Below, piece by piece: positions 1 through 15,630 of a DNA stretch of 64,000 nt. Every line of letters begins with the position of its first letter. The stretch's first letter is position 1. The stretch comes from a virus, in the IMG/VR virus record IMGVR_UViG_3300042396_000723, positions 32,001 through 96,000 of that record; one strand, written 5' to 3'. Under the pieces are notes generated by a model that searched no databases, was not told the origin of the DNA, and worked only from the letters and a program-made list of their open reading frames with translations. A program made the translations under genes and the position numbers.

Positions 1-213
1 GAGCAACTCGATTTTCCATTAGGTGAATGGACTCTCCATCAAGACACTGAGATCCTATCTCGCCCTTTCTAATTTTCAAACAGTGGCTTGTTTTATTTGT
101 CATTACCACCACAGGAATAGGGGGATAAGGTGGGGCTACTATGTATGCCGATAATTTCATAATTATTGATTTAGTCCTCTGCGCTAACTCCTATTATAGT
201 ACAAATCAAACCC

Positions 214-681
214 TCAATATCTCCGCCTTAAATATTCTGCCAATAATAACGCCTCTGCCCTCCCGTGATGTTTTTCGAGTTTAAGATTGTTAGTTTCACC
301 TGGAAACATCTGCAACGCCATCACCCTTGACGCTTTCTTATCTTTTCCTATTAGGCTGTAGTGCTTTTTCCATGCCTGGGGAGTAACAAACTCCATCGGG
401 ATTCCTAGCGTTGCAATAATCCCAAGCCAAATCCCAAAACCCATCCCAAAGTTAAAAGTAGAAGATACCCCTTGCTTGGGCATTGCATGAACATTCTCAA
501 TAATTAGGTGAGTATTGATGGTGATCATTTCCTTCAGTCCAGATGCCATTAATGTCGGGTTGGGGCGTATCTTTCCACTAATCTTAATCACTGGACAGTC
601 GAGAAATTTAACCTCACCATTAGAAATCCTACACACTGCCCCCGTCGCTCCGGGGTCAATTCCGATAAATGTTTTAGTCAT
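214..681 (-). CDS. RuvC-like Holliday junction resolvase (phage type)
   Basis: 155 aa; N-terminal FIGIDPGATGA motif typical of RuvC/YqgF-fold resolvases; last gene of the minus-strand block. Confidence 0.5.
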   Translation of the reverse strand: MTKTFIGIDPGATGAVCRISNGEVKFLDCPVIKISGKIRPNPTLMASGLKEMITINTHLIIENVHAMPKQGVSSTFNFGMGFGIWLGIIATLGIPMEFVTPQAWKKHYSLIGKDKKASRVMALQMFPGETNNLKLEKHHGRAEALLLAEYLRRRY

Positions 682-994
682 TATCCGTTGTTGTTTGTAA
701 ATAGTTGATAACAGATGGGCTATAGTCAGATATTAAAATTCTTTCAATTGCCCAAGAGAAGTTGTATTTATCAATTTTTTCACCAAGTCTTCTGCTTAGA
801 ATTTTAAATATTATTCTGATTTTATCGCCAATATAAGCAGATCCATAATTTAGATTTTTGGCAATCTCAGGATAAGTATTGTCGTTTAATATTCCCTCGA
901 GAATCTTTCTAGTCAAGCTATCAAGATGTTTTCCGGTCTCGGAAAATACCAAACTATCAACCAACCAGATATATTCTAACTGTTCCCTAGTCAC
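674..994 (-). CDS. small HTH protein (LuxR / sigma-70 region 4-like)
   Basis: 106 aa; segment EIAKNLNYGSAYIGDKIRIIFKIL resembles a LuxR-type HTH; 8-nt overlap with downstream gene. Confidence 0.3.
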   Translation of the reverse strand: MTREQLEYIWLVDSLVFSETGKHLDSLTRKILEGILNDNTYPEIAKNLNYGSAYIGDKIRIIFKILSRRLGEKIDKYNFSWAIERILISDYSPSVINYLQTTTDND

Positions 995-1319
995 CTATAA
1001 AATCTCCCTCCGCATGGTAGATCCCATTATGAATTTTAAAACCTTCAATATTCTCGGTTTCAATATCCGAAAAACTTACCCGTTCACTAACCATCCAGAT
1101 TAGTAATTTTTCTAAAGTGTCAAAAGCTGGAAGGTGTGGCAGTTCAAGCCTTAATCTATCGGGTGTTCCAAAAGCACCTTTAAAGTGAGTGCTGAATTTA
1201 AAGATAGAATAATGGCGATCGCTTACCCCTCTTGATATTTTTTCCACTTCATCGAGTAGGCATCCTAAGTTTTCCATCCTAAGTTTTCCATCCTTTCTTA
1301 GCACTGTTGGCATCCGCAA
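987..1319 (-). CDS. hypothetical protein
   Basis: 110 aa ORF in tight minus-strand array; 5' end overlaps a 14-bp tandem duplication. Confidence 0.3.
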   Translation of the reverse strand: MRMPTVLRKDGKLRMENLGCLLDEVEKISRGVSDRHYSIFKFSTHFKGAFGTPDRLRLELPHLPAFDTLEKLLIWMVSERVSFSDIETENIEGFKIHNGIYHAEGDFIGD

Positions 1320-1554
1320 AAGCTATATGATCTCGCGTTATTTGCCACTCGTAACGAGGTCTTAGTCCCTCTCCAATCCTAACACAATCCGAGTCTGTAT
1401 CAGTCAGAGGAGTCACACCATTCTGATATTTGAACAGGGTCTTAGTCACCCAATTGACATCGGTTAATAATTGATTCCCGCCGCGTTTTCTGGCAGTGGT
1501 AACAACTAACTCGGCAATCTCTGGATAATTTGATTTAACTTTTGACTTTTTCAT
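1279..1554 (-). CDS. hypothetical protein
   Basis: 91 aa ORF; stop codon lies inside the 14-bp tandem duplication at 1261-1288. Confidence 0.3.
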   Translation of the reverse strand: MKKSKVKSNYPEIAELVVTTARKRGGNQLLTDVNWVTKTLFKYQNGVTPLTDTDSDCVRIGEGLRPRYEWQITRDHIAFADANSAKKGWKT

Positions 1555-1884
1555 TTAAAATTCTTGATTGTTGTCTATGGTTTTCTTGAACTCTGAACCA
1601 ACGGGAGCTAAGTTTTCTCGCCAGCTTAACCATCGGGTTTGTTGGTTTAGTTTGGCGGCGTTATAGTCTTCTAGTGTGATGTTCCAATCCTCAACAGGAG
1701 CAAACTCTAAACCAAGATCAAGAATGGTTTTGACAGCCCCTTCACGGGGGTATTTGGCTTTAGGGTTTGTCGTCCGGTGATAGAGTGTCATCAAAATAAA
1801 GTCTTTGTTTTTGGGGATGGGATTGGGTTCTGGGATTAACAGGATTTGACTGTAGACTGATTCGACTACTTCTGGATATTGCAT
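1555..1884 (-). CDS. hypothetical protein
   Basis: 109 aa ORF abutting neighbours; no recognisable motif. Confidence 0.35.
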   Translation of the reverse strand: MQYPEVVESVYSQILLIPEPNPIPKNKDFILMTLYHRTTNPKAKYPREGAVKTILDLGLEFAPVEDWNITLEDYNAAKLNQQTRWLSWRENLAPVGSEFKKTIDNNQEF

Positions 1885-1891
1885 GAGGTTA

Positions 1892-2659
1892 TTAAGCTCT
1901 TGACGGTATCTTGTTAGTGTTGTCAGATGGAACTATTGAGGTAATACTTGAATCCCCATAATTATTCCACTGAACTATATTTGTCGCCTGCTTCCAGAGT
2001 TGTTGCACTCGGACTTTGTGAGGTAAAAATTCTTCGCTACAAAACTTTCCGAAGTAATCTATATCCCCATCATAACAATCAGTAATTAAATCCCTGGGAT
2101 ATTCAAAATCATAAATCCCGTAAATATTGTTAAAGTTTGCATCGGAATGTTTACCAGATCCCTCCCACAAACCAAATTGACCCCGAAACCACCCTCGACT
2201 TATATCTTCTCTCTTTTGGAATTGTTTACGTCTTTGTATCTCGTATTCGTAACCGTCAATCTCGCTACAGTCTTCCTGTTCATCAGGAGCGTAAAGCATC
2301 CCTATTGCTGTTTCCGAGTCAGGATCATAATGTGATGATATCCCGTTATCAAGCAAAGAAATCCCAACTAAAAGAATAAGCCCTTTGCAATTACAGTTTT
2401 CTATATTCTCCTTAATCTTCCGAACAGTTGCATCGTAATCATGGAACGGATAAACGGGTTTAACCTCAACAAATATCAATTCTTGTCTCCCTACTATCAC
2501 AAAGTCAGGTATCCATCCATCAAAATCGCAAGGTTCATATTCCCATTTCCAATTAAGTAAATCAAAGAAAGCCGCCCACTTAGCTTCTAATCTTGACCGG
2601 AATTGAATCCCATTATATCGAGTGGGTTTGTTTTTGATGGTGTAGTCAAATCCTTTCAT
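1892..2659 (-). CDS. PD-(D/E)xK nuclease-fold protein (putative)
   Basis: 255 aa; N-terminal RSRLEAKWAAFFD followed by IPDFVIV...LIFVEVKP, consistent with a D...(E)xK restriction-endonuclease-like core. Confidence 0.4.
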   Translation of the reverse strand: MKGFDYTIKNKPTRYNGIQFRSRLEAKWAAFFDLLNWKWEYEPCDFDGWIPDFVIVGRQELIFVEVKPVYPFHDYDATVRKIKENIENCNCKGLILLVGISLLDNGISSHYDPDSETAIGMLYAPDEQEDCSEIDGYEYEIQRRKQFQKREDISRGWFRGQFGLWEGSGKHSDANFNNIYGIYDFEYPRDLITDCYDGDIDYFGKFCSEEFLPHKVRVQQLWKQATNIVQWNNYGDSSITSIVPSDNTNKIPSRA

Positions 2660-2695
2660 GTTTTCCTCTTATTTGCTAATGTTTGCAATTCAAAA

Positions 2696-3316
2696 TTACC
2701 AACTCGGATTACCGCCATTAACGGCATCCGTCATGTATTTAGTTCTACGATGCCAACCCGACTTAAACACGGTTTGAGAAGGTCTACTGGTATAAATTGA
2801 GGTGTAATAACTATCTTGAGACTTGAGATAGTTTAACGCCTGTTCCTGCGGTGTTGACCCTGAGATATCCCACTTTTTACCACTATTAACATAACTATTC
2901 ATAATAGCTAAATTAAGCGGTTTCTGGGCTTTATCTGCACCTGAAGCTATCCAGTAGTCGGTGTGATATATCTTTATTGCTTGGGGTAAAGTTATTGAGG
3001 AAACGTTTAACCCGTGCCGTTTGGCTACACTTTCAATAATACCATACTTGGTTTTCCCACCGCCATCGGCAGGGTGATCCGACCAACCTCCTTCTACCTT
3101 CAAAATGTGACTTATAGCCCATGCAAAACCCTCGTCATTTATACCAGCTTGACTAACAGCTTTCTTAATCTCTTCAGGGGCTTGTGCTTTGGAAATATCA
3201 CCGGAAACATTACCCGATGGATTAGCACCCGTTACTGATTGAATTGCGGGGGATTGTAATAAATTGATAAGTGTAAACCCCGTTACCCCTAACATCATTA
3301 AGTTATTGAAAATCAT
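2696..3316 (-). CDS. GH108-type lysozyme with peptidoglycan-binding domain (endolysin candidate)
   Basis: 206 aa; EGGWSDHPADGGGKTKYGI matches the GH108 N-terminal signature; hydrophobic N-terminus. Confidence 0.75.
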   Translation of the reverse strand: MIFNNLMMLGVTGFTLINLLQSPAIQSVTGANPSGNVSGDISKAQAPEEIKKAVSQAGINDEGFAWAISHILKVEGGWSDHPADGGGKTKYGIIESVAKRHGLNVSSITLPQAIKIYHTDYWIASGADKAQKPLNLAIMNSYVNSGKKWDISGSTPQEQALNYLKSQDSYYTSIYTSRPSQTVFKSGWHRRTKYMTDAVNGGNPSW

Positions 3317-3909
3317 TTTTTCGGCTCCATTATTGGGATTACTTTTTTAGGGTCAATATATTTCCCGTTGAGTTTTATTCCTAAGTGCAGGTGATTTCCG
3401 GTTGATGTTCCCGTAGTACCAACTAGAGCTATGGGAGTACCTGCTTTGACCGACTGACCCTTTTGAGCTAAAACTTTCGAGGCGTGGCAGTATTTGGACA
3501 GGTAGCCACCTGAGTGATTGATCTCAACTGCATTGCCACAACCGCCCATGTCACCCGCAAAAGACACCTGACCATCGGCAACGGCTAAGATGTTTGCACC
3601 CCCCGGCGCTGCAAAATCAATCCCGTTGTGCATTTTTTGCCCTCCCGTTACAGGATGCTCTCTCATACCAAACCCAGAAGATATTGTGTAAGGGGTTGAA
3701 TGGGGATAGATAAACTTAGGGGCGTTTTTACCTAACGTAATTGTTTCTGATGTTGTTGTTGATTGGGATTGAGGAACTGAGGTAGAGGGTGATCCAAACT
3801 TAAAAATGCTAAAGCCCACAAGCAAAACAGAAACGAAACACCAGAACCAAACATCATCAAGCTGTTCCTCACAATCCCTTATCCTCTCCTCCAATTTCCG
3901 GTTCAACAT
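3313..3909 (-). CDS. M23 family metallopeptidase (LytM-like)
   Basis: 198 aa; HNGIDF and GNHLHLG zinc-ligand motifs; N-terminal membrane anchor. Confidence 0.8.
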   Translation of the reverse strand: MLNRKLEERIRDCEEQLDDVWFWCFVSVLLVGFSIFKFGSPSTSVPQSQSTTTSETITLGKNAPKFIYPHSTPYTISSGFGMREHPVTGGQKMHNGIDFAAPGGANILAVADGQVSFAGDMGGCGNAVEINHSGGYLSKYCHASKVLAQKGQSVKAGTPIALVGTTGTSTGNHLHLGIKLNGKYIDPKKVIPIMEPKK

Positions 3910-3913
3910 TGCC

Positions 3914-4264
3914 TTATTTTCCCCCCATATCTTGCTTGCCTATTTGTTCTGATTTATCGTTTTTGGGAACGTCAAGGTTGTAGCGCGATCGCAAGCCACC
4001 TAATTTAAACTCGCCACTAAATAGGTTTTTAGCTGTCTCTTTCTTTTCGGGTTTAGTGGAATCGGAAGATTTTTTATCATCGGTTTTGGGTTCTTCTTTA
4101 GGTTTTGCCCAGTCCTCCTTGGGTATCTGCCTAGTTATTTCTGGGATGGTTTTTACCGTTTCGGCTACACCCTTTTTAAACCACCAAGGGATTGACTGAT
4201 TCCAACAAAAGTAAATCAGAAATACCCAACCCAGAACAGATCCAAAATAGAATAAAACTCTCAT
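3914..4264 (-). CDS. small membrane protein
   Basis: 116 aa; N-terminal hydrophobic segment, lysine-rich C-terminus; start/stop overlap with neighbours. Confidence 0.35.
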   Translation of the reverse strand: MRVLFYFGSVLGWVFLIYFCWNQSIPWWFKKGVAETVKTIPEITRQIPKEDWAKPKEEPKTDDKKSSDSTKPEKKETAKNLFSGEFKLGGLRSRYNLDVPKNDKSEQIGKQDMGGK

Positions 4265-4500
4265 TATTTAACATCCTCCAGTGATTCAATTGGGGTAATG
4301 GTTGAATCGGAATCGTCACCTTGACCGGGGGGAAGTTGACGATTATTTGTGGCATTTATAGACCCGCCGAACCAATAGGTTAAAGTCCCTACACTTTTCT
4401 CGAATAATGTCTTGATAGCGGTTTCAACTGTCATCCCTCTGACTCCAAAAAAGACAAGTAAAGTTAGCGCAGAAACGAAAACAATTCTTGAGGGTTTCAT
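4264..4500 (-). CDS. small secreted/membrane protein
   Basis: 78 aa with signal-peptide-like N-terminus. Confidence 0.3.
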   Translation of the reverse strand: MKPSRIVFVSALTLLVFFGVRGMTVETAIKTLFEKSVGTLTYWFGGSINATNNRQLPPGQGDDSDSTITPIESLEDVK

Positions 4501-4512
4501 AAGTAAAGGCTC

Positions 4513-5985
4513 CTATTTATTAATTAAGACTTTGGACTGAGAGGACTGAGATAATTGAGACTCCCATGCGGGTTTGAGGTAATTCGTGTAACGCTTGTTA
4601 GTAGAACGCGGCTCTATTCCTAACTCGCTACAAATTTGTTTTAGGGGTGATGGAATCAAACCGTGGGAATATTTAAAAGCCCGAAGTTCAAGAGAAGATT
4701 TAAACAGGGCAGTATTAACCTGCTCCCACCAATCACTATCCGGGTCGGTTGATTTGGCACTGGCAAAGGTAACGTTAAATCCTGATAGGTCAGGAATTGA
4801 AACTACTCTTGATTGCCCTTTGATTGTGCAGATAGCGGGTCTTTTCCCTTCCTTGAGCAACCTTTCAGCTATCTCTATTAACCCCGTTTTCTCCCCTGCT
4901 AAATACCGTAACTGCGATTCAGGGATTGATGGGTAGCAGATTATTAATTGAGCTAAATTTTCCAGTGTTGCCAAAGTAAAACCACCCTCACCGACGGACG
5001 CGGATTGACCCACGGGGATTAACTTAATCTTGTAGCCTCTACCCTGCTTAATGATCTCAATTAGCTTATCGAGCCGGGAATTGGTTTTGTCTGACTTGTA
5101 TCGTTCCACGATACTGTCAAATTCTTCGCAGATTAGGCAAATCGGAGTCAGGTCAACTTGAATTTCTGATATCTTTTTGGCTCCGTTTTTGGCTCCGTCA
5201 ACACAAGCCTTAATCCGTTTATCTAATTGGGCGTGAACGTGATCAATTAGGCTATCAATCTCGTCATCGGGTTGCTTGATCCATTCGGTGTCCAACCCAA
5301 ACCAATTATTAAGATAACCGTCATTATCGGGCTTTCCATAGTTCGGGTCAGCAATAAACAGTTGACCATCGGGGTTATTCTCAAGCCATTGACTGATTAT
5401 CAATCCCAGGAGTTTAGATTTTCCCGACCCCGTGCCACCCGTTAGCCTTTGATGTGGCAACGATAGAAATTCGGATACCCAACCCGAATCATCTTTGATT
5501 GATTGAAACTTAGACTTGATTTCCGGTGGGATAGCGCGGATCAACAGTTGAGATGATTTGGCATAACCTTTTTCTCCAAAGTCCCCTAGACTATCCAAAG
5601 CCTGACCAACTCCCCAAACTGTCCAACTAACTGATTTAGCCAAGGTATCGGGGACGGTGCGGGGTAGATCCTCAAGTTTGACCATAGACTCATCCCCTAG
5701 TATCAACCCCGCTAAAGCACCAAGGCATCCCACGCCCGCTAAATATAGAAGGATTGAATTATTAACGGGTTTACGCTCAATTACCAAAACGCTACCCCAT
5801 TCTCCTTTCTGAGATTGGTGGGGTGAGATACCTTTTAAATCCTCAATCTGAACAGTCGCAGCGCTGAATAAACCAATGGCTGAAAATCCTAAACTTGCTG
5901 CAACGGCAACCCCCCAATTATCCTTAGTGAAGTTATTTGGTCTTGCCATCTTTAGCCTCCTTTTCTGCCAATTGTTTAGCCTCAA
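4513..5985 (-). CDS. FtsK/SpoIIIE-family P-loop ATPase with N-terminal membrane anchor
   Basis: 490 aa; two N-terminal TM segments; Walker A GGTGSGKS followed by LFIADPNYG (FtsK-like hhhhDPK), Walker B LICEEFD, then QGRGYKIKLIPVGQS. Confidence 0.55.
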   Translation of the reverse strand: MRLNNWQKRRLKMARPNNFTKDNWGVAVAASLGFSAIGLFSAATVQIEDLKGISPHQSQKGEWGSVLVIERKPVNNSILLYLAGVGCLGALAGLILGDESMVKLEDLPRTVPDTLAKSVSWTVWGVGQALDSLGDFGEKGYAKSSQLLIRAIPPEIKSKFQSIKDDSGWVSEFLSLPHQRLTGGTGSGKSKLLGLIISQWLENNPDGQLFIADPNYGKPDNDGYLNNWFGLDTEWIKQPDDEIDSLIDHVHAQLDKRIKACVDGAKNGAKKISEIQVDLTPICLICEEFDSIVERYKSDKTNSRLDKLIEIIKQGRGYKIKLIPVGQSASVGEGGFTLATLENLAQLIICYPSIPESQLRYLAGEKTGLIEIAERLLKEGKRPAICTIKGQSRVVSIPDLSGFNVTFASAKSTDPDSDWWEQVNTALFKSSLELRAFKYSHGLIPSPLKQICSELGIEPRSTNKRYTNYLKPAWESQLSQSSQSKVLINK

Positions 5986-6739
5986 GTTCTAATTGCTTTT
6001 GAAGGGCCTCAGTCCGCTTCTGCTGCTCGTAGGTTAAAGCTCTAAGTGTCATGGCAACCTCAGAGAACCGACGGACATCACTCGCCAAAACCGAGACATT
6101 AACAGAGGTAAACTTTAATTGAATTTGATCTGCCGATGTAGTTTCCCAATGGCGTTTTAGTGCCAAAAGATTTCCCCAAACCTCAAACAACAAATCAGCC
6201 GCTTGCTTCCGTTCTTTAGGTGAACCGTTAAATTCTCCCTCTAGCGTAGCTTTATCAAGTTTGTTAGCCAGAAAGTTGATTTTCTTAATCAGAAATAACT
6301 CAATAGAAATGGGTTTCTTTTCAATCTCAGAACGAGCTTGCAACAGGAATGTTTCTGCTACCGCTTCACTCAAGTTGTTAACTTGAAAACCTACCTCGTT
6401 TAATGACTTATCTAATAGCTCATTTCGTGCCATTTCTAAGTCAGGGGATGGTTGAAATTCTCCAGAATTATCATTAGCTTCGGTCGAGGTTTCCCCTGTT
6501 GGTTCTACCGTCATTTGCTGAACTTCGGCACTTTCAGCTACGGGAACGTTAGGAGCAAACTTCTTGATAATTCCTGATTTATTCCCGACTAAGGTAATAA
6601 AACTACAAACTGCAATAACTGTTAGTAAAACCGCTACTCGTTTTCGTGTTTTATTAGGCTTTCTAGGTTCCCTCTGAGTGGCTTCTGAATCCCCACTAAA
6701 AGCTGGTAAGTCATCACTAGGCTGTAAACTGTCTAACAT
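5933..6739 (-). CDS. membrane-anchored coiled-coil protein
   Basis: 268 aa; one TM segment (VAVLLTVIAVCSFITLVG) and coiled-coil-like C-terminus. Confidence 0.4.
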   Translation of the reverse strand: MLDSLQPSDDLPAFSGDSEATQREPRKPNKTRKRVAVLLTVIAVCSFITLVGNKSGIIKKFAPNVPVAESAEVQQMTVEPTGETSTEANDNSGEFQPSPDLEMARNELLDKSLNEVGFQVNNLSEAVAETFLLQARSEIEKKPISIELFLIKKINFLANKLDKATLEGEFNGSPKERKQAADLLFEVWGNLLALKRHWETTSADQIQLKFTSVNVSVLASDVRRFSEVAMTLRALTYEQQKRTEALQKQLELEAKQLAEKEAKDGKTK

Positions 6740-6744
6740 CTATA

Positions 6745-7170
6745 TCAATCTCCCTGTGCATGGTGTGAGGTTTTGATTTTCTGGGCGTTGGTGTTTGGAG
6801 TGGTGTTTTCGGGCGAAAGTACCTTTCCATAGAGTTCAAGGGCTTCAAAGTATTCAGGACTCCCAGGCTGAAGGCAATTCAGGTGATTCTCGGTTGCCCT
6901 TTGGATCAGTTCACCCAACACAAGGTTAAAGTCTGGTTTTGTGTCTGATCTGTTGGGGCTTGTTTCCTTGTTTGATTGGGTGTTATTGCGGGTTGTGATA
7001 GCCAAGAGTGCAGTAGTTGTGGAACTAGCTATTAATCCGATAAAACCCCCGTATTGACCCATTCTAACCTCTGATATTTCCGGTTCTAATGTTAGGGATA
7101 ACAGGACTGAACTAAGACCACCAATCACAGTTCCAACCATGATCGCCTTAACGGGTTCTGGGATTTTCAT
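6745..7170 (-). CDS. membrane protein
   Basis: 141 aa; two hydrophobic segments. Confidence 0.4.
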   Translation of the reverse strand: MKIPEPVKAIMVGTVIGGLSSVLLSLTLEPEISEVRMGQYGGFIGLIASSTTTALLAITTRNNTQSNKETSPNRSDTKPDFNLVLGELIQRATENHLNCLQPGSPEYFEALELYGKVLSPENTTPNTNAQKIKTSHHAQGD

Positions 7171-7460
7171 ATTGATAGTTTTGGGATTGTTCCCTGATTC
7201 GACTAAAAACTACTTGATTGCTAAATATTAAAAACCCAATAAAGAATGCTGTTAAATAATAAATAGTATTCATTAGAAACAACCTCCCATTAAAAAGGGC
7301 ATTACGTTATGTGAGCAGTAAACTCCAAATAGATTAACCAAGTCGATAACGATTCCCACTTAAAACCCTCCCATTAATAATTCTAATTGTTGACTGATTT
7401 CCTTGGGTTGAGGGATTTTTAGGATAACTTCTATTCTCTCAACCCGTGTTTCTAGTTCGT

Positions 7461-7970
7461 TTATTCTCCGAAAAAACTTCTCACAGCTAACTGGGATTTT
7501 TTTGACTTTCCCACCGCTTCGTTAAGTTGCTGTTCTAAAGCCTCAATTGAGATTTCTTGATCAAAGTCTAAGAGGTTTCCTAACTCATCCCCGGACGCTT
7601 GATCAATTGCATTCTTGTACTCAGGAATCCCAACTAATAAAGCCTTGGCGGATTCAATTTCATCGTCTGCAATTTCATTTAAGAAAGCCAATTGTTTTGC
7701 TTTTTTAAATAGTTTAGCATCTTCCCGCCCGGAGTTTTGACCCGCAACAACAACGGCTTTAGTGTTAACAATCGCGTTATCCTTAGCTTTCTTTTGGGTC
7801 TTAACAACTGCATCATTGAGTTGATCTGTTGTACTCCCTTTGGTGATAGCTGATTTAGTCTGCTGTTTCGGCTGTTCCGCCTGGGTTTGGGGTTTCCGTG
7901 AGTTCTGATACAACTCGGTAAGTTCCGGTTGAGTGTTGTTGTCGGTAGCTTGTGATTCTTGATAGGACAT
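7461..7970 (-). CDS. hypothetical protein
   Basis: 169 aa; 5' end overlaps ORF 7855-8328 by 116 nt, so one of the two starts is doubtful. Confidence 0.3.
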   Translation of the reverse strand: MSYQESQATDNNTQPELTELYQNSRKPQTQAEQPKQQTKSAITKGSTTDQLNDAVVKTQKKAKDNAIVNTKAVVVAGQNSGREDAKLFKKAKQLAFLNEIADDEIESAKALLVGIPEYKNAIDQASGDELGNLLDFDQEISIEALEQQLNEAVGKSKKSQLAVRSFFGE

Positions 7971-8328
7971 CGACTTTAAACTCCTTAAATAGTTGGGTTG
8001 TGTTTAGCATTAACATCTTCTGGAAAACTTCTATCTCGATAGATAAACCGTTGTTTAAACAGTGGTGATAGAGGCTTTGGAACTGATAGTAGGTATGGTG
8101 TGGGTATTTGGAACTAACAAAAATATGCAATAGGTACAAGATGTTTAATTCCGCCCAATCAACAGGTTTTCTTGTTATCCCCAAAACCCCTTTTCTGTCT
8201 GCGATTGTCTGGTGGGAAACCTTGAAAATCAACTGAATCTCTTTTGAGGAAAATGGTTCTAAAGCGTTTTCGTCTCTAAGATCTATTGTTTTCCTAATTC
8301 CCCCTTGCCTCGATCTAAAATCGCCCAT
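7855..8328 (-). CDS. hypothetical protein
   Basis: 157 aa; overlaps previous ORF. Confidence 0.25.
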   Translation of the reverse strand: MGDFRSRQGGIRKTIDLRDENALEPFSSKEIQLIFKVSHQTIADRKGVLGITRKPVDWAELNILYLLHIFVSSKYPHHTYYQFQSLYHHCLNNGLSIEIEVFQKMLMLNTTQLFKEFKVDVLSRITSYRQQHSTGTYRVVSELTETPNPGGTAETAD

Positions 8329-8451
8329 TCATGGCTTCCTATAGTCCTCCGTTCTGGGTTTACTCAGGCTTGATTTAACCTGATGTACCAATAGTAAACC
8401 CACCTCTAAGGGTGGGCATAGGGGAAAATACATCTGGGGTGGAATTTGCCA

Positions 8452-8655
8452 CTACTGATTATTCTTTTCCTGCCATTCCATAACATAAAGCGTGTGTTTG
8501 CAAAATCGTTTCAATACATCTCGGTCAACCCATAAGTCCACAAAGGTATTATCTTGATTAATCGTTGCAATACAGTATTGACCATTAAGGTTTTGCCCTA
8601 ATTTTATTTCCCCTTTTAGGTGATGGACTTCTTGAGAGTGTGAATAATTGTCCAT
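8452..8655 (-). CDS. hypothetical protein
   Basis: 67 aa; start overlaps upstream stop. Confidence 0.3.
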   Translation of the reverse strand: MDNYSHSQEVHHLKGEIKLGQNLNGQYCIATINQDNTFVDLWVDRDVLKRFCKHTLYVMEWQEKNNQ

Positions 8656-8852
8656 TATATTTTTCCCTCTGATTGTGCTAACAAACCTAAGTGGCGACGA
8701 AATTGAACGTATTGGGGTTTAGGGTCGTAGCCTTTGCGACGGTGATTTTTTACCGTGTCAGGGTCGGCTCCTGTTAACAATGAAATTTGGTTGATGGATT
8801 TTCCGGTAAGTAAACGAAATTCATCTACAGATAGTTCTTTTTGTGCAAACAT
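8655..8852 (-). CDS. hypothetical small protein
   Basis: 65 aa; first gene after a divergent intergenic region. Confidence 0.3.
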   Translation of the reverse strand: MFAQKELSVDEFRLLTGKSINQISLLTGADPDTVKNHRRKGYDPKPQYVQFRRHLGLLAQSEGKI

Positions 8853-8977
8853 TGTAATAGCCTCAACTGGGTTAAAGAATGGGTTGGGGTGGGGCTGATC
8901 GGCTGATATCCGGTCAGCCCCTTTCAGTATTTGTGTTAATGTTATGCTGATTATATGCTAAACGACATAAAAAAACA

Positions 8978-9229
8978 ATGGACAAAAGGTATAGAATTAC
9001 GATTAAGATCCCTGCGTGGCATAATAAGCGATTAAGGGAATGGGCAGCACTCAAGGGTGTAGCACCCACAACCTTGGCGGGTAACGTATTGCAAGCTCGA
9101 ATAGAAGCAAACGACGAACAAATTGTGGCGATGTTAAAGTCTCGGTCTGAGGATGAAGGATTAACTATTGAGGAATTTATTAAAAAGATTGTCAATGATT
9201 CAGATGATCAAGAAAAGCCCACTAGGTAG
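8978..9229 (+). CDS. ribbon-helix-helix-like small DNA-binding protein (putative)
   Basis: 83 aa; N-terminal RITIKIPAWHNKRLREWAALKGV resembles an RHH beta-strand plus helix; lone plus-strand gene inside minus block. Confidence 0.4.
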   Translation: MDKRYRITIKIPAWHNKRLREWAALKGVAPTTLAGNVLQARIEANDEQIVAMLKSRSEDEGLTIEEFIKKIVNDSDDQEKPTR

Positions 9230-9281
9230 AGTGAGCTTCTTTGGAGTTATCGGGAATAAGGGCAGGAGTTGTAAGATTGTT

Positions 9282-9716
9282 TTAAATAAGACTGTTCAAA
9301 CTATTTACAATTTCTTCCTTATTGATTTCATCATCTACAAATCTTTTTGCATTGATTGAATCAATTAAAAATTGAAAAGCTCTTGATTCAGTAAGATACA
9401 TTGGGATATTTAAAACGTTGTCAAGTTCACCGTTAAATATTTTATTTGCTATTATCACGGCATCCTCAACATTTAGAACGCCATCATGCACCAACAATTC
9501 CACAATGCCAATTAATCCCATGTAGAATCCAGCTTTTAATAAATCCGAATAATCGGGTTTTACTATTTTGGCTTTTTCGTTAATTTCAACCGTAGATTTA
9601 TGAGCTAAACTGTATTCTAAACAGTATTTGAAATTATCTGGGTTCAATTGTGAGAGTAAAATAACGCCTTTTTCACTCACAAACTTTGAGCCAGAATCTA
9701 ATTCTTTAATGTCCAT
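9282..9716 (-). CDS. hypothetical protein
   Basis: 144 aa; AT-rich ORF convergent with the RHH gene. Confidence 0.35.
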   Translation of the reverse strand: MDIKELDSGSKFVSEKGVILLSQLNPDNFKYCLEYSLAHKSTVEINEKAKIVKPDYSDLLKAGFYMGLIGIVELLVHDGVLNVEDAVIIANKIFNGELDNVLNIPMYLTESRAFQFLIDSINAKRFVDDEINKEEIVNSLNSLI

Positions 9717-9829
9717 TTTGTCTCCATAATGTTTCCTGTGGGATGCCCCTACTCTGACGGGAATCAGAAATAGGGGCTTTTAATTTATTTTATCGCCACC
9801 ATTGTCCGTCGCTGATGAAGTCTTGATCG

Positions 9830-10159
9830 TTAGATAAACAAACTTAACTGACCCTCACTAGCAACCGCTTTACGTTTTGGATTGTTCCACGATTCCCCCC
9901 GACTGTTGACACGGTTTCGCCAGTGGGGATAGGTTCTGAACGGTTGTTTCAGTGCCACAAATTTAGGAATCAGTTTCAATTCCTCAAGCCAGATTTTGTA
10001 AGGACTGTATTCCCTGGCTCCGAATGGGTAGCGGTCGTTGCAATACTTCCGGGCATCCTTAGAGTTGATCTCTTCGCTCAGACAAGCGCATTGTGCTTCG
10101 TACTCGATCAAAGAGTCTGCAATCTTTGAGATTGAACAATCGCGCCAAGACATTTGCAT
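9830..10159 (-). CDS. hypothetical protein
   Basis: 109 aa ORF. Confidence 0.35.
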   Translation of the reverse strand: MQMSWRDCSISKIADSLIEYEAQCACLSEEINSKDARKYCNDRYPFGAREYSPYKIWLEELKLIPKFVALKQPFRTYPHWRNRVNSRGESWNNPKRKAVASEGQLSLFI

Positions 10160-10290
10160 TTCAATTCCCTCCAGAATAATAATTCAACCAATACCAAAAC
10201 GTTGTCAGTTGCCACTCGTGGGGTTTTTTACGACTGACAATATTGCGCCATAGTCTGAAGTTGGCTCGAAAGTCACGCAGGCCAGTCCAA

Positions 10291-10572
10291 TCAATCATGT
10301 TTCCTCCTGTGTTTTTTGGGGTTTAGCGATCGCAAATAATCTGCAATCGCTCGGCAATGGTTTGGATCATTAACATCTTCATGACACTGAATCCAATGTT
10401 TAATCAGTGTCAAATTGTAGCCATACCCCGCCCGATTCCCCCCAGGGCGTTTGTAATAATGAATATTTTCGATCCATTTTTTGTGAGAGTGTTTAACGGA
10501 ATCGGGATTTTTTAATCCCAGGAGTTTGACCGCTTCATGTTTGGAGCCAAATTCGTAGGCTGTGGCAATCAT
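10291..10572 (-). CDS. small DNA-binding protein, excisionase/MerR-like HTH (tentative)
   Basis: 93 aa; pattern HYYKRPGGNRAGYGYNLTLIKHWI resembles excisionase-type HTH proteins; weak. Confidence 0.25.
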   Translation of the reverse strand: MIATAYEFGSKHEAVKLLGLKNPDSVKHSHKKWIENIHYYKRPGGNRAGYGYNLTLIKHWIQCHEDVNDPNHCRAIADYLRSLNPKKHRRKHD

Positions 10573-10958
10573 AAACCTTGAATCCTTAACTGAATAGGAA
10601 CCTCGTTAATCTCCAACAATCCTTTTTTAGAAAGTTTTGCCAATTCAACCTGAACATCTTGCACGTCGAATTTAATTTCTTTCTCCTTCCCCAATGGAGT
10701 TACGCCAGAACAGTCAAGTATTGTGATTAGATTTTCTGGTGTAACTTCTAAATCTTTATTGCAGCCATAAAGAAGACGAAGCATATAGAGAATGTAGACA
10801 GATTTGTTTATTCCCCCTGCTATTAAATCCGATTGCAAATTATAAACAGATTGGACTAATTTACCCTGTTTATTCATCACTGTCCCCATATTTTTCTCTG
10901 GGGCTTTTAATTGAATGACGTTATCAATTTCAGTGGTTTCAATTTGTTCAACTTGCAT
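10569..10958 (-). CDS. hypothetical protein
   Basis: 129 aa; start/stop overlap with neighbour. Confidence 0.35.
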   Translation of the reverse strand: MQVEQIETTEIDNVIQLKAPEKNMGTVMNKQGKLVQSVYNLQSDLIAGGINKSVYILYMLRLLYGCNKDLEVTPENLITILDCSGVTPLGKEKEIKFDVQDVQVELAKLSKKGLLEINEVPIQLRIQGL

Positions 10959-10967
10959 AATCTTCTC

Positions 10968-11261
10968 CTATCTAGTAAAACTGATTTGAGCATCCCAGAG
11001 GGTTTGAAGCCACTGGTTTTGCGTGGGCATTAAGTGTTGATTTTTTTCTCTTAACGGATGCGGGAACATCCTCCGAGCTAGTTTAGATGCTGCGATCGCA
11101 TCTTTTTTAGAATGAAAATACCCAGGGAAACGTCGCCCTGATGCCAAGTGAGTAACCCCCCAGTAATCGTCGTCAATCCGATGTACAGCGATCCACTTTC
11201 TGATAGTTGCCTTTACTTTCCATCGCCCATAAATAGTATGGGTTACAATCGTTTTTCTCAT
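10968..11261 (-). CDS. hypothetical protein
   Basis: 97 aa. Confidence 0.35.
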   Translation of the reverse strand: MRKTIVTHTIYGRWKVKATIRKWIAVHRIDDDYWGVTHLASGRRFPGYFHSKKDAIAASKLARRMFPHPLREKNQHLMPTQNQWLQTLWDAQISFTR

Positions 11262-11449
11262 GACTCAACCCTTGTTCTTGTGATAACTGAAACGGGAACC
11301 CCGTCCCAATCTTCCTGGATATAGTATCTGCCAGTGCCAGATTTATTCATTTCCTCGCACTTTTTCCGAGCTTGATTAAATCTCGGATAAGACGCGATAA
11401 TAACGCCTTTTCCTAGTTCCCAAATCGCGTAGCCTTTCTGTTTGCTCAT
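11258..11449 (-). CDS. hypothetical protein
   Basis: 63 aa; overlapping stop/start with downstream gene. Confidence 0.3.
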   Translation of the reverse strand: MSKQKGYAIWELGKGVIIASYPRFNQARKKCEEMNKSGTGRYYIQEDWDGVPVSVITRTRVES

Positions 11450-11541
11450 CTTTCTGTCTTAATGTTAATTTGGCATATTCAATAGCAAAAAATATGCCCC
11501 CTTTATACTGTTTTTCCCTGTATGGATTGGGGGCTTAAACT

Positions 11542-11697
11542 TTAAGCTCGTTTTAATCTCGAACCATATTGAACGTGATGGTATAGAGTCTCAACAGTTT
11601 TGAACCGATGCCCACAGTCTGGACATTTCCGCTCTCGGTACTCTTTCCTCGTGCCGACTACACAAGTCTTTTCAGCGTTGCATTTAGGACATTTCAT
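11542..11697 (-). CDS. zinc-ribbon small protein (not in ORF track)
   Basis: My own translation: MKCPKCNAEKTCVVGTRKEYRERKCPDCGHRFKTVETLYHHVQYGSRLKRA (51 aa), CxxC...CxxC; GGAGG upstream; start overlaps the TAA of a 32-aa upstream ORF (TAATG). Confidence 0.45.
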   Translation of the reverse strand: MKCPKCNAEKTCVVGTRKEYRERKCPDCGHRFKTVETLYHHVQYGSRLKRA

Positions 11698-11898
11698 TAC
11701 AACACCTCCTCCTTCTTGTTGTAAAAGTCTTTTAGTTCGCTAATGGCTTTAATGAGAAGATCAATTTCTGGAGAATAACGCTTCGTACTTGACATCTGGT
11801 TTCTGGTTAATGGGTTAAAAAAGGGGTGTAGCTAGAGGGCTTTCCACCCCAGGAGATTCTTACTTACACAAACGTTTAAATGATTAAACGATTTTTGT

Positions 11899-12054
11899 CT
11901 AAACATCACCTCCTTCATCTTCGGCTTCAATATCAATTGAAGCATCCGCTTTTTCTAGCAGCCATTCGATAAATTCTTGGTAGATTTCTTCTTTGGTCAA
12001 AGAAGGATAATCTATTTCTTCTGTGTCACCACAAGCTCTAAATATTGCTTTCAT
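11899..12054 (-). CDS. small acidic protein (not in ORF track)
   Basis: My own translation: MKAIFRACGDTEEIDYPSLTKEEIYQEFIEWLLEKADASIDIEAEDEGGDV (51 aa); ATG overlaps TGA of upstream gene (ATGA). Confidence 0.35.
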   Translation of the reverse strand: MKAIFRACGDTEEIDYPSLTKEEIYQEFIEWLLEKADASIDIEAEDEGGDV

Positions 12055-12347
12055 GATTCTCCTTTCTGCTTGATATAATCCCCAAGCGATAAAACATAAA
12101 CTTCTGTCCCTTGTTCAATTGTTCCTTCGCTCCATTCAGGCTTGGGGATTCCCTTAGAGATTCCTAACAAAGTAACTGTTACCGAGGGGACGCTGTTGCC
12201 GTATCCGTTGGTAAAGCGGATATGGGTTAGTGGCTTATGAAATCGGGATTGATAGTAAGGTTTAATCTCCCGATATTCCTCTAGCTTCACGCCGGAGGCT
12301 ATCATGTCAAACCACTTTTTCTTGATGGCTAGAGTTAAGGTTTTCAT
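12051..12347 (-). CDS. ASCH/DUF3850-like domain protein (tentative)
   Basis: 98 aa; N-terminus MKTLTLAIKKKWFDMIASGVKLEEYR resembles the ASCH beta-barrel N-terminal pattern. Confidence 0.35.
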   Translation of the reverse strand: MKTLTLAIKKKWFDMIASGVKLEEYREIKPYYQSRFHKPLTHIRFTNGYGNSVPSVTVTLLGISKGIPKPEWSEGTIEQGTEVYVLSLGDYIKQKGES

Positions 12348-12379
12348 AACCCTTTTCCTGCTCTCATAAGTTCATTGAT

Positions 12380-12589
12380 CTAGCGAGTGCGATCGCGCCC
12401 CGCTTGTTGACCATCTTCATAACACCCTTGATCAAGGTGTGCTATTACTTCATCCCCTTTCAGGAGCCACCATTTCCGGTGATAAGGGACAGAACCCGTA
12501 GCGGTTCCCCAGAGTTCAACGCCTTCGGGCATCGCGTAATAATCTTTGTCGTAATTTGAAGCCACCCGTCTAATTTCTGATGCGTTCAT
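12380..12589 (-). CDS. hypothetical protein
   Basis: 69 aa. Confidence 0.3.
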   Translation of the reverse strand: MNASEIRRVASNYDKDYYAMPEGVELWGTATGSVPYHRKWWLLKGDEVIAHLDQGCYEDGQQAGRDRTR

Positions 12590-12668
12590 AATTCTCTTAT
12601 TTATGCTGGGTTTTGAATTGGGGGAATTTCACCCCCGGAGTTAATCAGTCAAGAACCAAGGCAATTAT

Positions 12669-13352
12669 TTAGAAATCGAAATTACTTCCAGTGAGAACTT
12701 TTACTTCAACAGGTGGCAGCGCCGAGGGGAGTGTGGGAGTTTTGTTCCCAACTAAATAACTCAATTCATCTTGAGCAAGACCATCAATGCACTGCATCAT
12801 CCGAGTCCCTTCCATGTCGGTCATTCGAGACAGATTAGCCGGATCAGCTAAAACCGCCGACGCTTGATCTAACATCGCCCAGTCGGTGCGCTCCTGCCAA
12901 GACCACTTAAGGCTGTAATAATTAACAGGCTTGATAACGTTGTTGGCATCGGGTTTGGAGCTTGACTGTTTGACAAATTCGGGTACAAAAATGCCTGTCG
13001 CGGGTTCCACACCTCGCGCTTGAACTTCTGTGACGAGGCGGTTAAAATCCCCTAAAGATTGGGTTTTTAAGTACGTCACCATCACCACACCTTTAGGCAG
13101 TTCCCCCGATTCAGCGACGAACCAAATCTGTCCCCAGGTTGCGCCTTGAGTTTGTCCGAGGTCGCCCCAGAATTTGGAGAATTTCAGGATTGTCATGGAA
13201 CATTTAGAGCCATAATCGGTGTCGCCAATTGTCCATTGTCCGGCTTGGCAATTGTTACGAACGGCAATAGGGAAATTGGGAACTAAGATTGCATCTTTCG
13301 GCTTAGCTCCGAAGACGGAAATAGTGGATTTTTCGGCTGCTGTTTTTGTCAT
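12669..13352 (-). CDS. hypothetical protein
   Basis: 227 aa; long ORF, no motif recognised. Confidence 0.45.
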   Translation of the reverse strand: MTKTAAEKSTISVFGAKPKDAILVPNFPIAVRNNCQAGQWTIGDTDYGSKCSMTILKFSKFWGDLGQTQGATWGQIWFVAESGELPKGVVMVTYLKTQSLGDFNRLVTEVQARGVEPATGIFVPEFVKQSSSKPDANNVIKPVNYYSLKWSWQERTDWAMLDQASAVLADPANLSRMTDMEGTRMMQCIDGLAQDELSYLVGNKTPTLPSALPPVEVKVLTGSNFDF

Positions 13353-13445
13353 TTTGTTTTAGCTTGGTTTCTGTTAGTTTAATTAGGCTTAATCGCACCG
13401 CCCCAACGCCTCACAATCGCACTATGAAGCGTAAGGGAAAAACGA

Positions 13446-13682
13446 TTACTGATTACGCTCTTTGTACATATCAAAAGGATAAAAGTCGTCATCCGGCATT
13501 TCGGGAAAGAAGCCGTCGCTACCATCGGCAAATAGAATAATTCCCCCTGAGTTGTTGGGGTTCTTGATAAAAATGTCCCCTTCTGGATTTGAGAAATAAT
13601 CCAGACTTAAACTAGATCCACGATCAGATCCGATCTCATAGGCTCTATCTAAATTTTTTCTGTCCATGTTAGTTTTCTCCAA
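13446..13682 (-). CDS. hypothetical protein
   Basis: 78 aa acidic. Confidence 0.3.
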   Translation of the reverse strand: MEKTNMDRKNLDRAYEIGSDRGSSLSLDYFSNPEGDIFIKNPNNSGGIILFADGSDGFFPEMPDDDFYPFDMYKERNQ

Positions 13683-13866
13683 GAATTGAATTAATTAATT
13701 CGTTAAACTCATTCATTGTTCCCTGTGGAATCTGCTTAATAATTGCAGGGATCAAAACATCGTCAATCTCAATACATCGGTCGTTATAGGTTTCGTTGAA
13801 CTCGACAATGAAGTCGCGTTCTTCTATTAATTCGACGAATCTTTCAGCCAACTGCTTAACATCCAT
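13669..13866 (-). CDS. hypothetical protein
   Basis: 65 aa. Confidence 0.3.
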   Translation of the reverse strand: MDVKQLAERFVELIEERDFIVEFNETYNDRCIEIDDVLIPAIIKQIPQGTMNEFNELINSILGEN

Positions 13867-14096
13867 TACGCCACCTCCTCGTGGGATTTGTAATATTTCA
13901 CCGATCCGTTGTCGTAACGATATTCGATCCGATAGACTCGGTTAAATTTATCAGTTTCTTCTTTATTCGGAAATCCTATGATTCCTTCACATCTGAAGGT
14001 GGGATTTTCCCCATTCTCTCCCACCCATTCTTTAAATTCTTGGTAGGTGTCGAAGTTGATGGGTTCGATTCCCAGCGTGATGTAGTTACTGTTCAT
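13866..14096 (-). CDS. hypothetical protein
   Basis: 76 aa. Confidence 0.3.
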   Translation of the reverse strand: MNSNYITLGIEPINFDTYQEFKEWVGENGENPTFRCEGIIGFPNKEETDKFNRVYRIEYRYDNGSVKYYKSHEEVA

Positions 14097-14171
14097 TTTT
14101 TTTGCCTTAAATAATTAATGCTTTGTTGAACCTTTTAGGGACTTGTTCAGGTCTCGGTTGTTCTATGGGTA

Positions 14172-14696: not shown

Positions 14697-14915
14697 GGTT
14701 TAGTTGGGTTTTGACCCGTAAGGCGGTTGGCACTGATGTTGTAGTCGGGTGCTGACCGCTTTTGGCTTTGTATCTACAATCTTATAGTAATCTGATTACT
14801 ATGTCAAGGGGTTTCGGAAAAATTCTTGTTACTACACAAAAAGAAGTTTAGGTATTGGCGGCAAGGCTTGTACAGAAAGGCATTTAGCTTATGCGGTTGC
14901 AATCGACAATCACTC

Positions 14916-15188: not shown

Positions 15189-15465
15189 AATCTCCTCTTC
15201 TTGATCTTTCGGTATAGTATTGACATTACTACCTTTTTGTTCTAACATAGCAATATTGTAGGAATCTGGCAAGACCAAATCACCAGATTCCTGCACCCCC
15301 TGAAACAACAAGCCTTGGATCGGCTTTGTAAATCGTAAGGGGAAAAACCCGAAAAGGAAAATGCCTATGGGATGAAACTGAACGGGCAGATTGTAGAACA
15401 CCTAAATACCAGAGGGAAGATTCAAGCATTCCCTTTGGTTTCCTAAATAATGAAATGAAAAAAAT

Positions 15466-15568: not shown

Positions 15569-15630
15569 CCCAAACGGGGAGATGGTCGAAGAAGCTGATC
15601 ATCATTTTCCCTAAAAATTTTGAGGAAAAT

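Follow-up and report, generated by a model that had tools for sequence, protein, structure and literature searches.

The operon and its genes

The stretch analyzed here, below called the window, comprises 64,000 nucleotides (nt), positions 32,001 to 96,000 of the virus record IMGVR_UViG_3300042396_000723 (IMG/VR). Over the first 12 kb, about 81% of the nucleotides are identical to those of the Planktothrix phage PaV-LD, a member of the Caudoviricetes with a genome of 95.3 kb (NC_016564.1); window positions 214-12354 are aligned to 83587-94284 of PaV-LD. This region contains eight tightly packed genes, 2696-7273, all on the minus strand, encoding a membrane-anchored ATPase, membrane proteins and peptidoglycan hydrolases. 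The successive junctions, 5' to 3', are -23, +5, -17, +12, -1, +4 and -4 nt; judging by this spacing, which stays within -23 to +12 nt, the genes form one operon. They are listed below in the order of transcription, followed by the gene upstream of the operon (ORF, open reading frame; aa, amino acids; TM, transmembrane; percentages are identities to PaV-LD proteins).

7148..7273, minus strand: 41-aa ORF with a single TM helix, MNTIYYLTAFFIGFLIFSNQVVFSRIREQSQNYQYENPRTR; GGGAGG Shine-Dalgarno box; overlaps c2 by 23 nt
6745..7170, minus strand: c2, membrane protein, 141 aa; TM helix 10-28 and a second, weaker hydrophobic helix; 76% to ORF129
5933..6739, minus strand: c3, bitopic protein, 268 aa; basic N-terminus, TM helix 35-53; 78% to ORF128
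4513..5949, minus strand: membrane-anchored ATPase of the FtsK-HerA superfamily, 478 aa; TM helices 13-31 and 66-84
4264..4500, minus strand: 78-aa protein with one N-terminal TM helix (6-24); 77% to ORF125
3914..4264, minus strand: 116-aa protein with one N-terminal TM helix and a Lys/Glu/Pro-rich tail; 69% to ORF124, "holin"
3313..3909, minus strand: M23 (LytM-type) zinc endopeptidase, 198 aa, signal-anchored; Pfam PF01551, 4e-32; TM helix 20-38
2696..3316, minus strand: GH108 N-acetylmuramidase, 206 aa; Pfam PF05838 (Glyco_hydro_108), 3e-18; PHROG 315 "endolysin", 6e-40
7461..7970, minus strand: acidic soluble protein, 169 aa, upstream of the operon; 72% to ORF130

The operon probably starts with the 41-aa ORF. 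Over 34 aa, this ORF shares 70% identity with a part of PaV-LD between ORF129 and ORF130 that bears no annotation, and its copy in contig L004 (see below) is 100% identical. The 290-nt intergenic region upstream of the operon contains a 19-nt imperfect direct repeat (7278-7296 and 7362-7380) with the core TTAATGGGAGG on the coding strand; one of its copies provides the strong ribosome-binding site of the 41-aa ORF. A scan for promoters and terminators yielded no more sites than are found in shuffled sequence. The C-terminal helical or coiled-coil domain of c3, about 215 aa, is predicted to lie outside the cytoplasm, and the 3' end of c3 overlaps the start of the ATPase gene by 17 nt. PaV-LD has one more gene, ORF126 (102 aa, L001 5999-6307), in a segment of about 425 nt that separates the ATPase gene from ORF125. 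The window has nothing of this segment, only a 12-nt gap (4500-4513), and tblastn finds no copy elsewhere; thus ORF126 is dispensable for the module considered below.

All ORFs given in a preliminary description of this DNA are present on the minus strand, including a TM coiled-coil protein and a 2-TM protein upstream of the ATPase gene, which correspond to c3 and c2 (the second segment of c2 being weaker). The region was drawn there as 4264-7170; the ATPase and its partners do fall inside these limits, but the hydrolases do not. Both hydrolases were described as membrane-anchored. This agrees with the TM helix of the M23 protein; however, the N-terminus of the GH108 protein is only borderline hydrophobic (Kyte-Doolittle 1.52) and uncharged, and thus looks like a signal or signal-anchor-release (SAR) sequence rather than a firm anchor.

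The module in plasmids and other mobile elements

A search for synteny in related elements, suggested in the same description, yielded the same gene order, that is a 2-TM protein, c3, ATPase and hydrolase, in at least 13 further loci (L002, L003, L016, L018, L020, L021-L024 and L030-L033), with distant ATPases 22-42% identical to that of the window in the alignment. Together with the operon packing, the recurrence of this order in so many independent loci puts the arrangement far beyond chance. Those loci for which further features were recorded are as follows (MAG, metagenome-assembled genome).

L002 and L033: c1, c2, c3, ATPase, one protein of about 147 aa and one of about 154 aa, M23, SLT-like protein, DUF3854-type replication protein of about 1030 aa
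L003: c3, ATPase, 64- and 116-aa proteins, M23
L016: TARA ocean sample; KfrA-like gene nearby
L018: Kastovskya adunca MAG; M23 and SLT; adjoining Mu-like transposase; called a provirus in IMG/VR (L029)
L020: Elainellaceae MAG; ParM-like protein, c2, c3, ATPase, two small proteins, M23, DUF2927; upstream, a NikA-like gene as well as a gene for a protein of 1248 aa homologous to the DUF3854 protein; downstream, baseplate genes
L023: fused M23+GH108 protein of 363 aa
L024: tape-measure gene nearby
L030: M23 protein of 387 aa
L031 and L032: GH108; in L031, also a DUF3854/D5_N/DUF5906 primase-helicase

The hydrolase domains are fused in one anchored M23+GH108 protein of 363-379 aa in L021, L022 and L023, and M23 is paired with SLT in L002 and L018. 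Next to the modules of L002, L020, L031 and L033 is a gene for a large replication protein, a putative primase-helicase, of the DUF3854 type or homologous to it; the D5_N and DUF5906 domains were detected only in that of L031.

Five of these loci (L002, L003, L016, L018, L020) were compared with the window by blastp. The ATPases are 25-42% identical and the gene order is the same; c3 matches its counterparts in L002 (3e-11), L003, L016 and L018, c2 matches that of L020 (1e-3), and M23 matches those of L003 (2e-27), L020, L002 and L018 (E from 2e-27 to 7e-5). In an all-against-all BLAST comparison, the non-phage loci are linked among themselves far more strongly than to the window. Profiles of c2 and c3 were constructed from non-phage members only (for c2, from seven homologues in plasmids and mobile elements). 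The only significant matches of these profiles among the 324 ORFs of the window were c3 (2.5e-17) and c2 (1.7e-5) themselves.

The other small proteins are not shared. The 78-aa protein has no detectable homology to the bitopic protein occupying the same slot in the plasmid modules, and the match of the 116-aa protein to its counterpart by position is not significant (E 0.5). At the position of the 169-aa protein, the plasmid modules encode a soluble protein with a length of about 170-190 aa. The 169-aa protein is the top match of the c1 profile, again without significance (E 0.7), and its membership in the module is uncertain. Since these three proteins are not significantly related to their plasmid counterparts, the shared core consists of c2, c3, the ATPase and the M23/GH108 hydrolase. 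In four of the loci, the slot after the ATPase gene encodes a bitopic protein of about 148 aa (L002 9371-9811, L016 9419-9898, L018 11431-11877, L020 11446-11895) that ends in a conserved motif similar to the calcium-binding loop of EF-hands and dockerins, D.N.DG.V....EL; the 78-aa phage protein in this position does not contain the motif. The overlap of c3 with the ATPase gene, seen in the window, recurs in 11 of the 13 other loci, which argues for coupled translation and a physical complex of the two proteins.

The further loci include two complete circular plasmids of Oscillatoria acuminata PCC 6304, pOSCIL6304.01 and pOSCIL6304.02. In both, the genes run from ParM and two small genes through c3 and the ATPase to proteins of 143 aa and 81 aa and an anchored M23+GH108 protein of 379 aa (by Pfam), c2 being counted among them; the module adjoins a primase-helicase. 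The remaining genes are cargo: toxin-antitoxin systems, glycosyltransferases, a CHAT protein and insertion sequence (IS) elements. Neither plasmid contains capsid or tail genes or VirB4. A MOBP relaxase is encoded in pOSCIL6304.02 (NC_019694, 50.7 kb) about 30 kb from the module, and none in pOSCIL6304.01. A second ATPase of the VirB4 type was found neither in these plasmids nor in the window or the flanks of the loci (families VirB4, TraC and AAA_10).

We suggest that the core genes form a VirB4-independent DNA-translocation module common to cyanobacterial plasmids and phages, the hydrolase end of which doubles as the lysis cassette in the phage. The probability of this reading is roughly 0.4. 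It is supported by the apparent joint inheritance of the ATPase, c2, c3 and hydrolase in phages and in capsid-less plasmids, and by the predicted structure of the ATPase, for which the best match is the conjugative coupling protein TcpA.

The ATPase

The maximal ORF, 4513-5985, encodes 490 aa from a TTG start. Twenty-six close homologues, of 473-480 aa, can be aligned from the ATG at 5949, and thus the real product probably has 478 aa. The N-terminal TM helices and the motifs GGTGSGKS (Walker A), LFIADPNYG, LICEEFD (Walker B) and GRGYKIKLIPVGQS are all as initially described; only the start differs. The protein is 81% identical to ORF127 of PaV-LD, annotated there as "FtsK/SpoIIIE protein". 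Residues G176, K177 and E276 are invariant in 15 relatives that are 22-71% identical to the window ATPase. The AlphaFold model has a mean predicted local distance difference test score (pLDDT) of 69, with values of 70-90 in the motor and the C-terminal domain and low values in the linker 92-146. It contains two N-terminal helices connected by a beta-hairpin loop (about 30 aa, outside), a RecA-like motor at approximately 150-395 and a conserved four-helix domain at 403-471. Walker A and B motifs on a RecA-like core and the fold match assign the protein to the FtsK-HerA superfamily.

The assignment within the superfamily depends on the method. In structural comparisons TcpA is followed by FtsK, with weaker matches including packaging ATPases of the A32 and PRD1 lineages. 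The family profile, when compared with sequences from PDB, matches EccC at 1.4e-8, HerA at 7e-7, TcpA at 9e-5 and FtsK at 3e-4. The Pfam family FtsK_SpoIIIE (PF01580) does not match the window ATPase at E<=0.1, so that its gathering threshold is not reached; four of the 15 family members touch it, with the best E of 2e-5. The only Pfam match of the window ATPase is DUF87/HerA at 18 bits, under the cut-off of 23.2 bits. No NCBIfam model matches the ATPase, c2 or c3. PHROG 1358, "FtsK/SpoIIIE-like", matches the ATPase at 3e-10. As structure and sequence profiles disagree, we assign the protein no more precisely than to the part of the superfamily around FtsK, TcpA and EccC. The initially envisaged placement in a specific clade (TraB, TcpA or HerA) was not supported: the profiles rank EccC first, PF01580 is not reached, and no winged helix is recognisable.

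The EccC match raises the possibility of export similar to type VII secretion, in which a single-domain ATPase of the EccC/EssC type, together with bitopic partners, would carry the anchored hydrolases or the small proteins across the cytoplasmic membrane. Indeed, EccC and EssC likewise have two TM helices before the FtsK-like domain, and the small genes after the ATPase gene, encoding about 65-125 aa, could provide the substrates. However, the protein has one ATPase domain, not three; no locus contains a match to WXG100 or other type VII families, and the partners EccB, EccD and EssB are lacking. The hydrolases have their own N-terminal signals or anchors and need no dedicated exporter, and the small proteins begin with TM helices and do not form helical hairpins. 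Finally, the module occurs only in mobile elements of cyanobacteria, which points to a function in the propagation of the element. Export is thus unlikely.

Another function considered was entry exclusion or defence, with a membrane complex of the FtsK/HerA type blocking or expelling the DNA of competitors. FtsK-HerA ATPases are common in defence systems, the carriers of the module are competing mobile elements, and PADLOC gives weak matches over the ATPase core (mad8, 1.9e-7; HerA, 1e-3). However, these matches cover the generic P-loop core only, and no PADLOC partner gene is present. Neither is there a nuclease or effector domain, and a defence function would not explain why catalytic wall hydrolases and periplasmic proteins are obligatorily linked to the ATPase. 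We regard this as very unlikely.

A packaging ATPase of a membrane-containing tailless virion, similar to that of PRD1, was also considered and rejected as effectively refuted. It was suggested by the description of PaV-LD as tail-less (PMC10343443) and by the A32- and PRD1-lineage structural matches. However, the annotation of PaV-LD includes a tape-measure gene, the same module resides in capsid-less plasmids, and the window contains separate genes for packaging and the head, identified by PHROG:

38262-39866: large terminase TerL (7e-36)
41998-43986: portal protein (8e-78)
53715-54668: HK97-type major head protein (9e-54)
elsewhere in the window: head maturation protease

Thus the element is a tailed-phage genome with its own packaging motor, and the FtsK-like gene lies more than 32 kb from TerL, in the early/lysis arm. 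The only other ORFs of at least 150 aa with Walker A motifs in the window encode DnaB, thymidylate kinase, TerL and a 397-aa replication-initiation-like protein; in the latter the match is late in the protein and unremarkable.

An exhaustive profile search of 1.84 billion cluster representatives retrieved 994 proteins at E<=1e-3, of which 53 at E<=1e-30; most of the 150 matches listed have 400-510 aa. All twelve distant members that were inspected have two TM helices, the motor and the C-terminal signature. Homologue searches from alignments A2 and A4 gave little beyond the query groups themselves, and a metagenome scan with A4 gave no match. An alignment-based scan of genome contigs found the ATPase in the PaV-LD-like contigs L004 (JBIPMC010000389.1) and L005 (DATNRE010000655.1), and otherwise only generic FtsK-like genes of Streptococcus and actinomycetes. 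The bins holding L004 and L005 are labelled Terrimicrobiaceae and Candidatus Obscuribacterales; most likely, these are phage contigs mis-binned into bacterial MAGs. One of their ATPase fragments was named [quoted passage not shown] by NCBI.

Hydrolases and lysis

The window M23 protein retains the HxxxD (HNGID) and HxH (HLH) motifs and is 83% identical to ORF123 of PaV-LD. The GH108 protein, also 83% identical to its counterpart (ORF122), retains the catalytic EGG motif and has a PG_binding_3-like tail; its start overlaps the stop of the M23 gene by 4 nt. Thus the genes at 2696-4264 are direct orthologues of the PaV-LD lysis cassette ORF122-ORF124, 69-83% identical and in the same order. ORF123 is bacteriolytic in Escherichia coli and Synechocystis, depending on its TM domain, and ORF124 is membrane-located, weakly bacteriostatic, sensitive to dinitrophenol (DNP) and synergistic with ORF123 in the same hosts; the latter protein was named a holin (PMC9096620), that is ORF124. 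Thus a lysis cassette already in the literature makes up the downstream third of the operon, and for the ATPase gene there is an earlier annotation in PaV-LD. Meng et al. (2022; PMC9096620) considered ORF123 and ORF124 as a stand-alone holin-endopeptidase pair, without ORF125-ORF129 or the plasmid homologues, whereas here the hydrolases are the distal part of a larger conserved module. We found no paper on ORF125-ORF129 or one tying the ATPase to the hydrolases.

The main rival to the DNA-translocation reading follows from these data. The locus would be an ordinary phage lysis cassette (holin, SAR-type M23 and GH108), and the ATPase, c2 and c3 would either have an unrelated job or regulate or energise lysis. 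For instance, the ATPase might serve in SpoIIIE-like segregation of DNA across the closing septum, and the plasmid copies might be remnants or captures of phage lysis regions. This is possible. It explains the experiments, that is, the lytic and holin-like effects of ORF123 and ORF124 upon heterologous expression (PMC9096620), and it was foreseen in the preliminary description as a lysis module with an unusual ATPase, a view that gains from these experiments and from the fact that the PaV-LD annotation contains no peptidoglycan hydrolases besides ORF122 and ORF123. Both enzymes belong to PHROG endolysin families, all catalytic motifs of the phage M23 are kept, and the sequence similarity of the 116-aa protein to ORF124 completes the expected composition of a holin-endolysin cassette. 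Several loci other than those of the PaV-LD type have phage-like neighbours, and ParM adjoins the module in three loci, which would suit segregation.

What a lysis cassette does not explain is the linkage of the hydrolase to c2, c3 and the ATPase, which is retained down to 22-30% ATPase identity and includes the two plasmids without capsid and tail genes, where such a cassette has no obvious use. The c3-ATPase overlap and the shared operon packing argue for one machine, and a segregation pump needs neither anchored wall hydrolases nor proteins facing the periplasm. No lysis system is known to use an FtsK-like ATPase. On the other side, the transfer module proposed in the preliminary description gains from the occurrence in plasmids lacking phage structural genes, the structural match to TcpA and the exclusion of packaging.

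The M23 domains differ between the two contexts. In the phage type (window, PaV-LD, L003, L030) both zinc-ligand motifs are kept. In the plasmid type, HxH is kept and the canonical HxxxD is lacking in L018, L020 and L023, whereas L002 and L024 contain HxxxD only out of order. The plasmid-type proteins without the canonical HxxxD are:

L002 10269-11006
L018 12243-12962
L020 12206-12946
L023 4568-5659
L024 1112-1843

By these motifs, such domains may regulate other hydrolases, as LytM-type proteins, without being enzymes themselves, and the pattern suggests that the phage M23 was kept, or sharpened, as a true lytic enzyme.

Proposed mechanism

According to the DNA-translocation reading, the operon would encode a cytoplasmic-membrane machine facing the cell wall and built on a hexameric motor of the FtsK/TcpA type. 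The ATPase ring would pump the DNA of the element from the cytoplasm to the outside. The extracytoplasmic part of the channel would consist of c2, c3 and the small bitopic proteins, and the anchored hydrolases would open the peptidoglycan locally, like CwlT and Orf14 of Tn916 in Gram-positive conjugation. PrgK and TcpG have the same wall-opening role. CwlT and Tn916 Orf14 are bifunctional anchored proteins, with peptidase and muramidase activities, required for conjugation (PMC9324163). In the phage, the hydrolase end of the operon (the 116-aa single-TM protein, M23 and GH108) would also be the lysis cassette; it is read as lytic because the M23 is fully catalytic, because PaV-LD has no other annotated wall hydrolases, and because of the experiments cited above.

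No outer-membrane component is encoded in the module, which is striking for a diderm host. This would fit transfer between neighbouring cells of a trichome, where a membrane, the septal wall and a membrane are to be crossed. The outer membrane of the trichome is continuous and does not enter the septa. The septal peptidoglycan is already perforated by nanopores made by amidases (PMC5591844). Hence a machine spanning membrane, wall and membrane would be enough between neighbours.

Several observations weigh against this reading. By sequence profiles, the protein-secreting EccC and HerA are placed above TcpA and FtsK, and the C-terminal domain of the ATPase contains no recognisable winged helix. 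The phage and plasmid modules differ in the small bitopic proteins described above and in the M23 HxxxD motif, so that the two contexts may have diverged in function. Some non-phage loci have phage-like genes beside the module, namely the Mu-like transposase in L018, baseplate genes in L020 and the tape-measure gene in L024. The plasmid record NC_019700 (64 kb) is typed as non-mobilizable, and no transfer of the O. acuminata plasmids is documented. Repeat arrays similar to clt or oriT were not found around the module; the repeats present there, among them the 19-nt repeat upstream of the operon, are short, occur in two copies and are of the kind expected by chance. No relaxase family was detected among those window ORFs that were scanned, and no VirB6-like polytopic protein was found in the window.

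A more specific version of DNA transfer, which we consider unlikely, is a VirB4-independent pump similar to TraB that would move double-stranded DNA, of the plasmid or, in PaV-LD-like phages, of the replicating or carried phage genome, straight from cell to cell through the septal wall. In this case the virus would spread along the filament without making virions. The lack of an outer-membrane component fits this version, as does the occurrence of the module, so far, in filamentous hosts of the Oscillatoriales type. The degenerate LytM-type M23 of some plasmid copies could recruit septal amidases of the host. The abundance of PaV-LD relatives in Lake Erie, approximately at the host copy number with few free particles, is also consistent with it.

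Comparison with known systems

Coupling proteins of the TcpA/ConQ/Orf21 type from Gram-positive bacteria (MPF_FA) have the same architecture as the ATPase, two N-terminal TM helices and an FtsK-like motor, with about 450-530 aa. The Gram-positive MPF_FA systems (TcpG, CwlT, Tn916 Orf14, PrgK) likewise encode an anchored peptidase and muramidase in the same operon, with several bitopic partners. The VirB4 family is the only ubiquitous protein of type IV secretion systems. Unlike MPF_FA, the module contains no second ATPase of the VirB4 type, no VirB6-like polytopic protein and no nearby MOB_T relaxase; thus the two TM helices with the motor and the anchored hydrolase are shared with TcpA-type systems, and the co-located VirB4 is not. 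The sequence similarity to TcpA is marginal (9e-5 by the family profile). The coupling protein of the TcpA/ConQ type and the bifunctional anchored hydrolase are essential in Gram-positive conjugation (PMC3548315; PMC9324163). TcpA homologues have been reported only from Firmicutes (PMC3548315), whereas the hosts of the module are diderm cyanobacteria, and the module also occurs in a tailed phage.

In Streptomyces, one FtsK-like protein, TraB, moves double-stranded DNA between hyphal compartments (PMC3548315, PMC4447253). The TraB/Spd system resembles the module in having a single FtsK-like membrane ATPase without VirB4 or an obligatory relaxase, with small membrane proteins alongside, and in serving filamentous multicellular hosts by transfer to adjacent compartments without an outer-membrane channel (PMC3548315, PMC4447253). 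The gene content is compatible with it, as there is one ATPase and a relaxase-less plasmid carries the module. However, the C-terminal domain of the ATPase is not recognisable as the winged helix-turn-helix by which TraB reads 8-bp clt repeats, and the ATPase does not group with TraB at the sequence level; no array of clt-like 8-bp repeats was found near the module, dedicated M23 and GH108 enzymes are present, and TraB homologues have been reported only from Actinobacteria (PMC3548315). FtsK/SpoIIIE-like genes of phages of Bacillus and actinobacteria are likewise phage-borne members of the FtsK superfamily with no packaging role (PHROG 1358; PMC8597652), but they have not been reported to be linked to membrane partners or wall hydrolases, and the identity is limited to the P-loop core.

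The genes themselves are already known; what appears to be new is a module without VirB4 shared by phages and plasmids in cyanobacteria. Native DNA transfer in cyanobacteria is poorly understood, and the only described class is the VirB4-based MPF_C. Firmicutes (TcpA) and Actinobacteria (TraB) were considered the only groups with conjugation motors of the FtsK branch (PMC3548315). As a compact VirB4-less module recurs in plasmids of filamentous cyanobacteria and in a Planktothrix phage lineage relevant to blooms, it is a concrete candidate for a third lineage of FtsK-type transfer machines. The PaV-LD "holin-endopeptidase" genes, proposed for bloom control, would then have to be re-read as a part of a larger machine. 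If the phage does move DNA between cells, the line between phages and conjugative plasmids would be blurred, and this could explain the high host-associated and low free-particle loads in Lake Erie.

The element and other observations

The annotation of PaV-LD includes an integrase, a ParB-like gene and toxin-antitoxin pairs. These genes, together with the host-like copy number and little free phage, make a plasmid-like carried state of PaV-LD-like phages plausible, and DNA transfer would be useful there. Further gene products of the window were recognised, from their translations, as a DnaB helicase and a cytosine methylase. Positions 1-17000 of the window run without interruption through sequence that is divided between the two termini of PaV-LD in its linear record (83.5-95.3 kb and 1-3 kb), genes past 12354 resembling ORF005 and ORF007. 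Thus the deposited ends of PaV-LD are probably arbitrary, the genome being circularly permuted or terminally redundant.

The structural arm contains seven paralogous genes on the plus strand:

44774-45739
46182-49466
56125-57549
57651-59516
59598-60716
60713-61852
62134-63585

Five of them share an N-terminal module of about 130 aa ending in the Cys-rich motif K.QCVKPT.YNCG.ACIN..K.C, and three share a C-terminal domain with an HE..HW motif, zincin-like in appearance. Two match PHROG 16619 "minor head protein" and PHROG 33618, respectively. Such an expansion of putative virion proteins within one genome is unusual.

One more paralogous pair has one member in each arm of the genome, 26760-27449 on the minus strand and 49642-50370 on the plus strand (229 and 242 aa). 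The two proteins share a long, nearly identical central stretch (with PQTYAEALLEAGRLALEVEKLEAEK) and look like anti-repressors of the Bro/KilA type.

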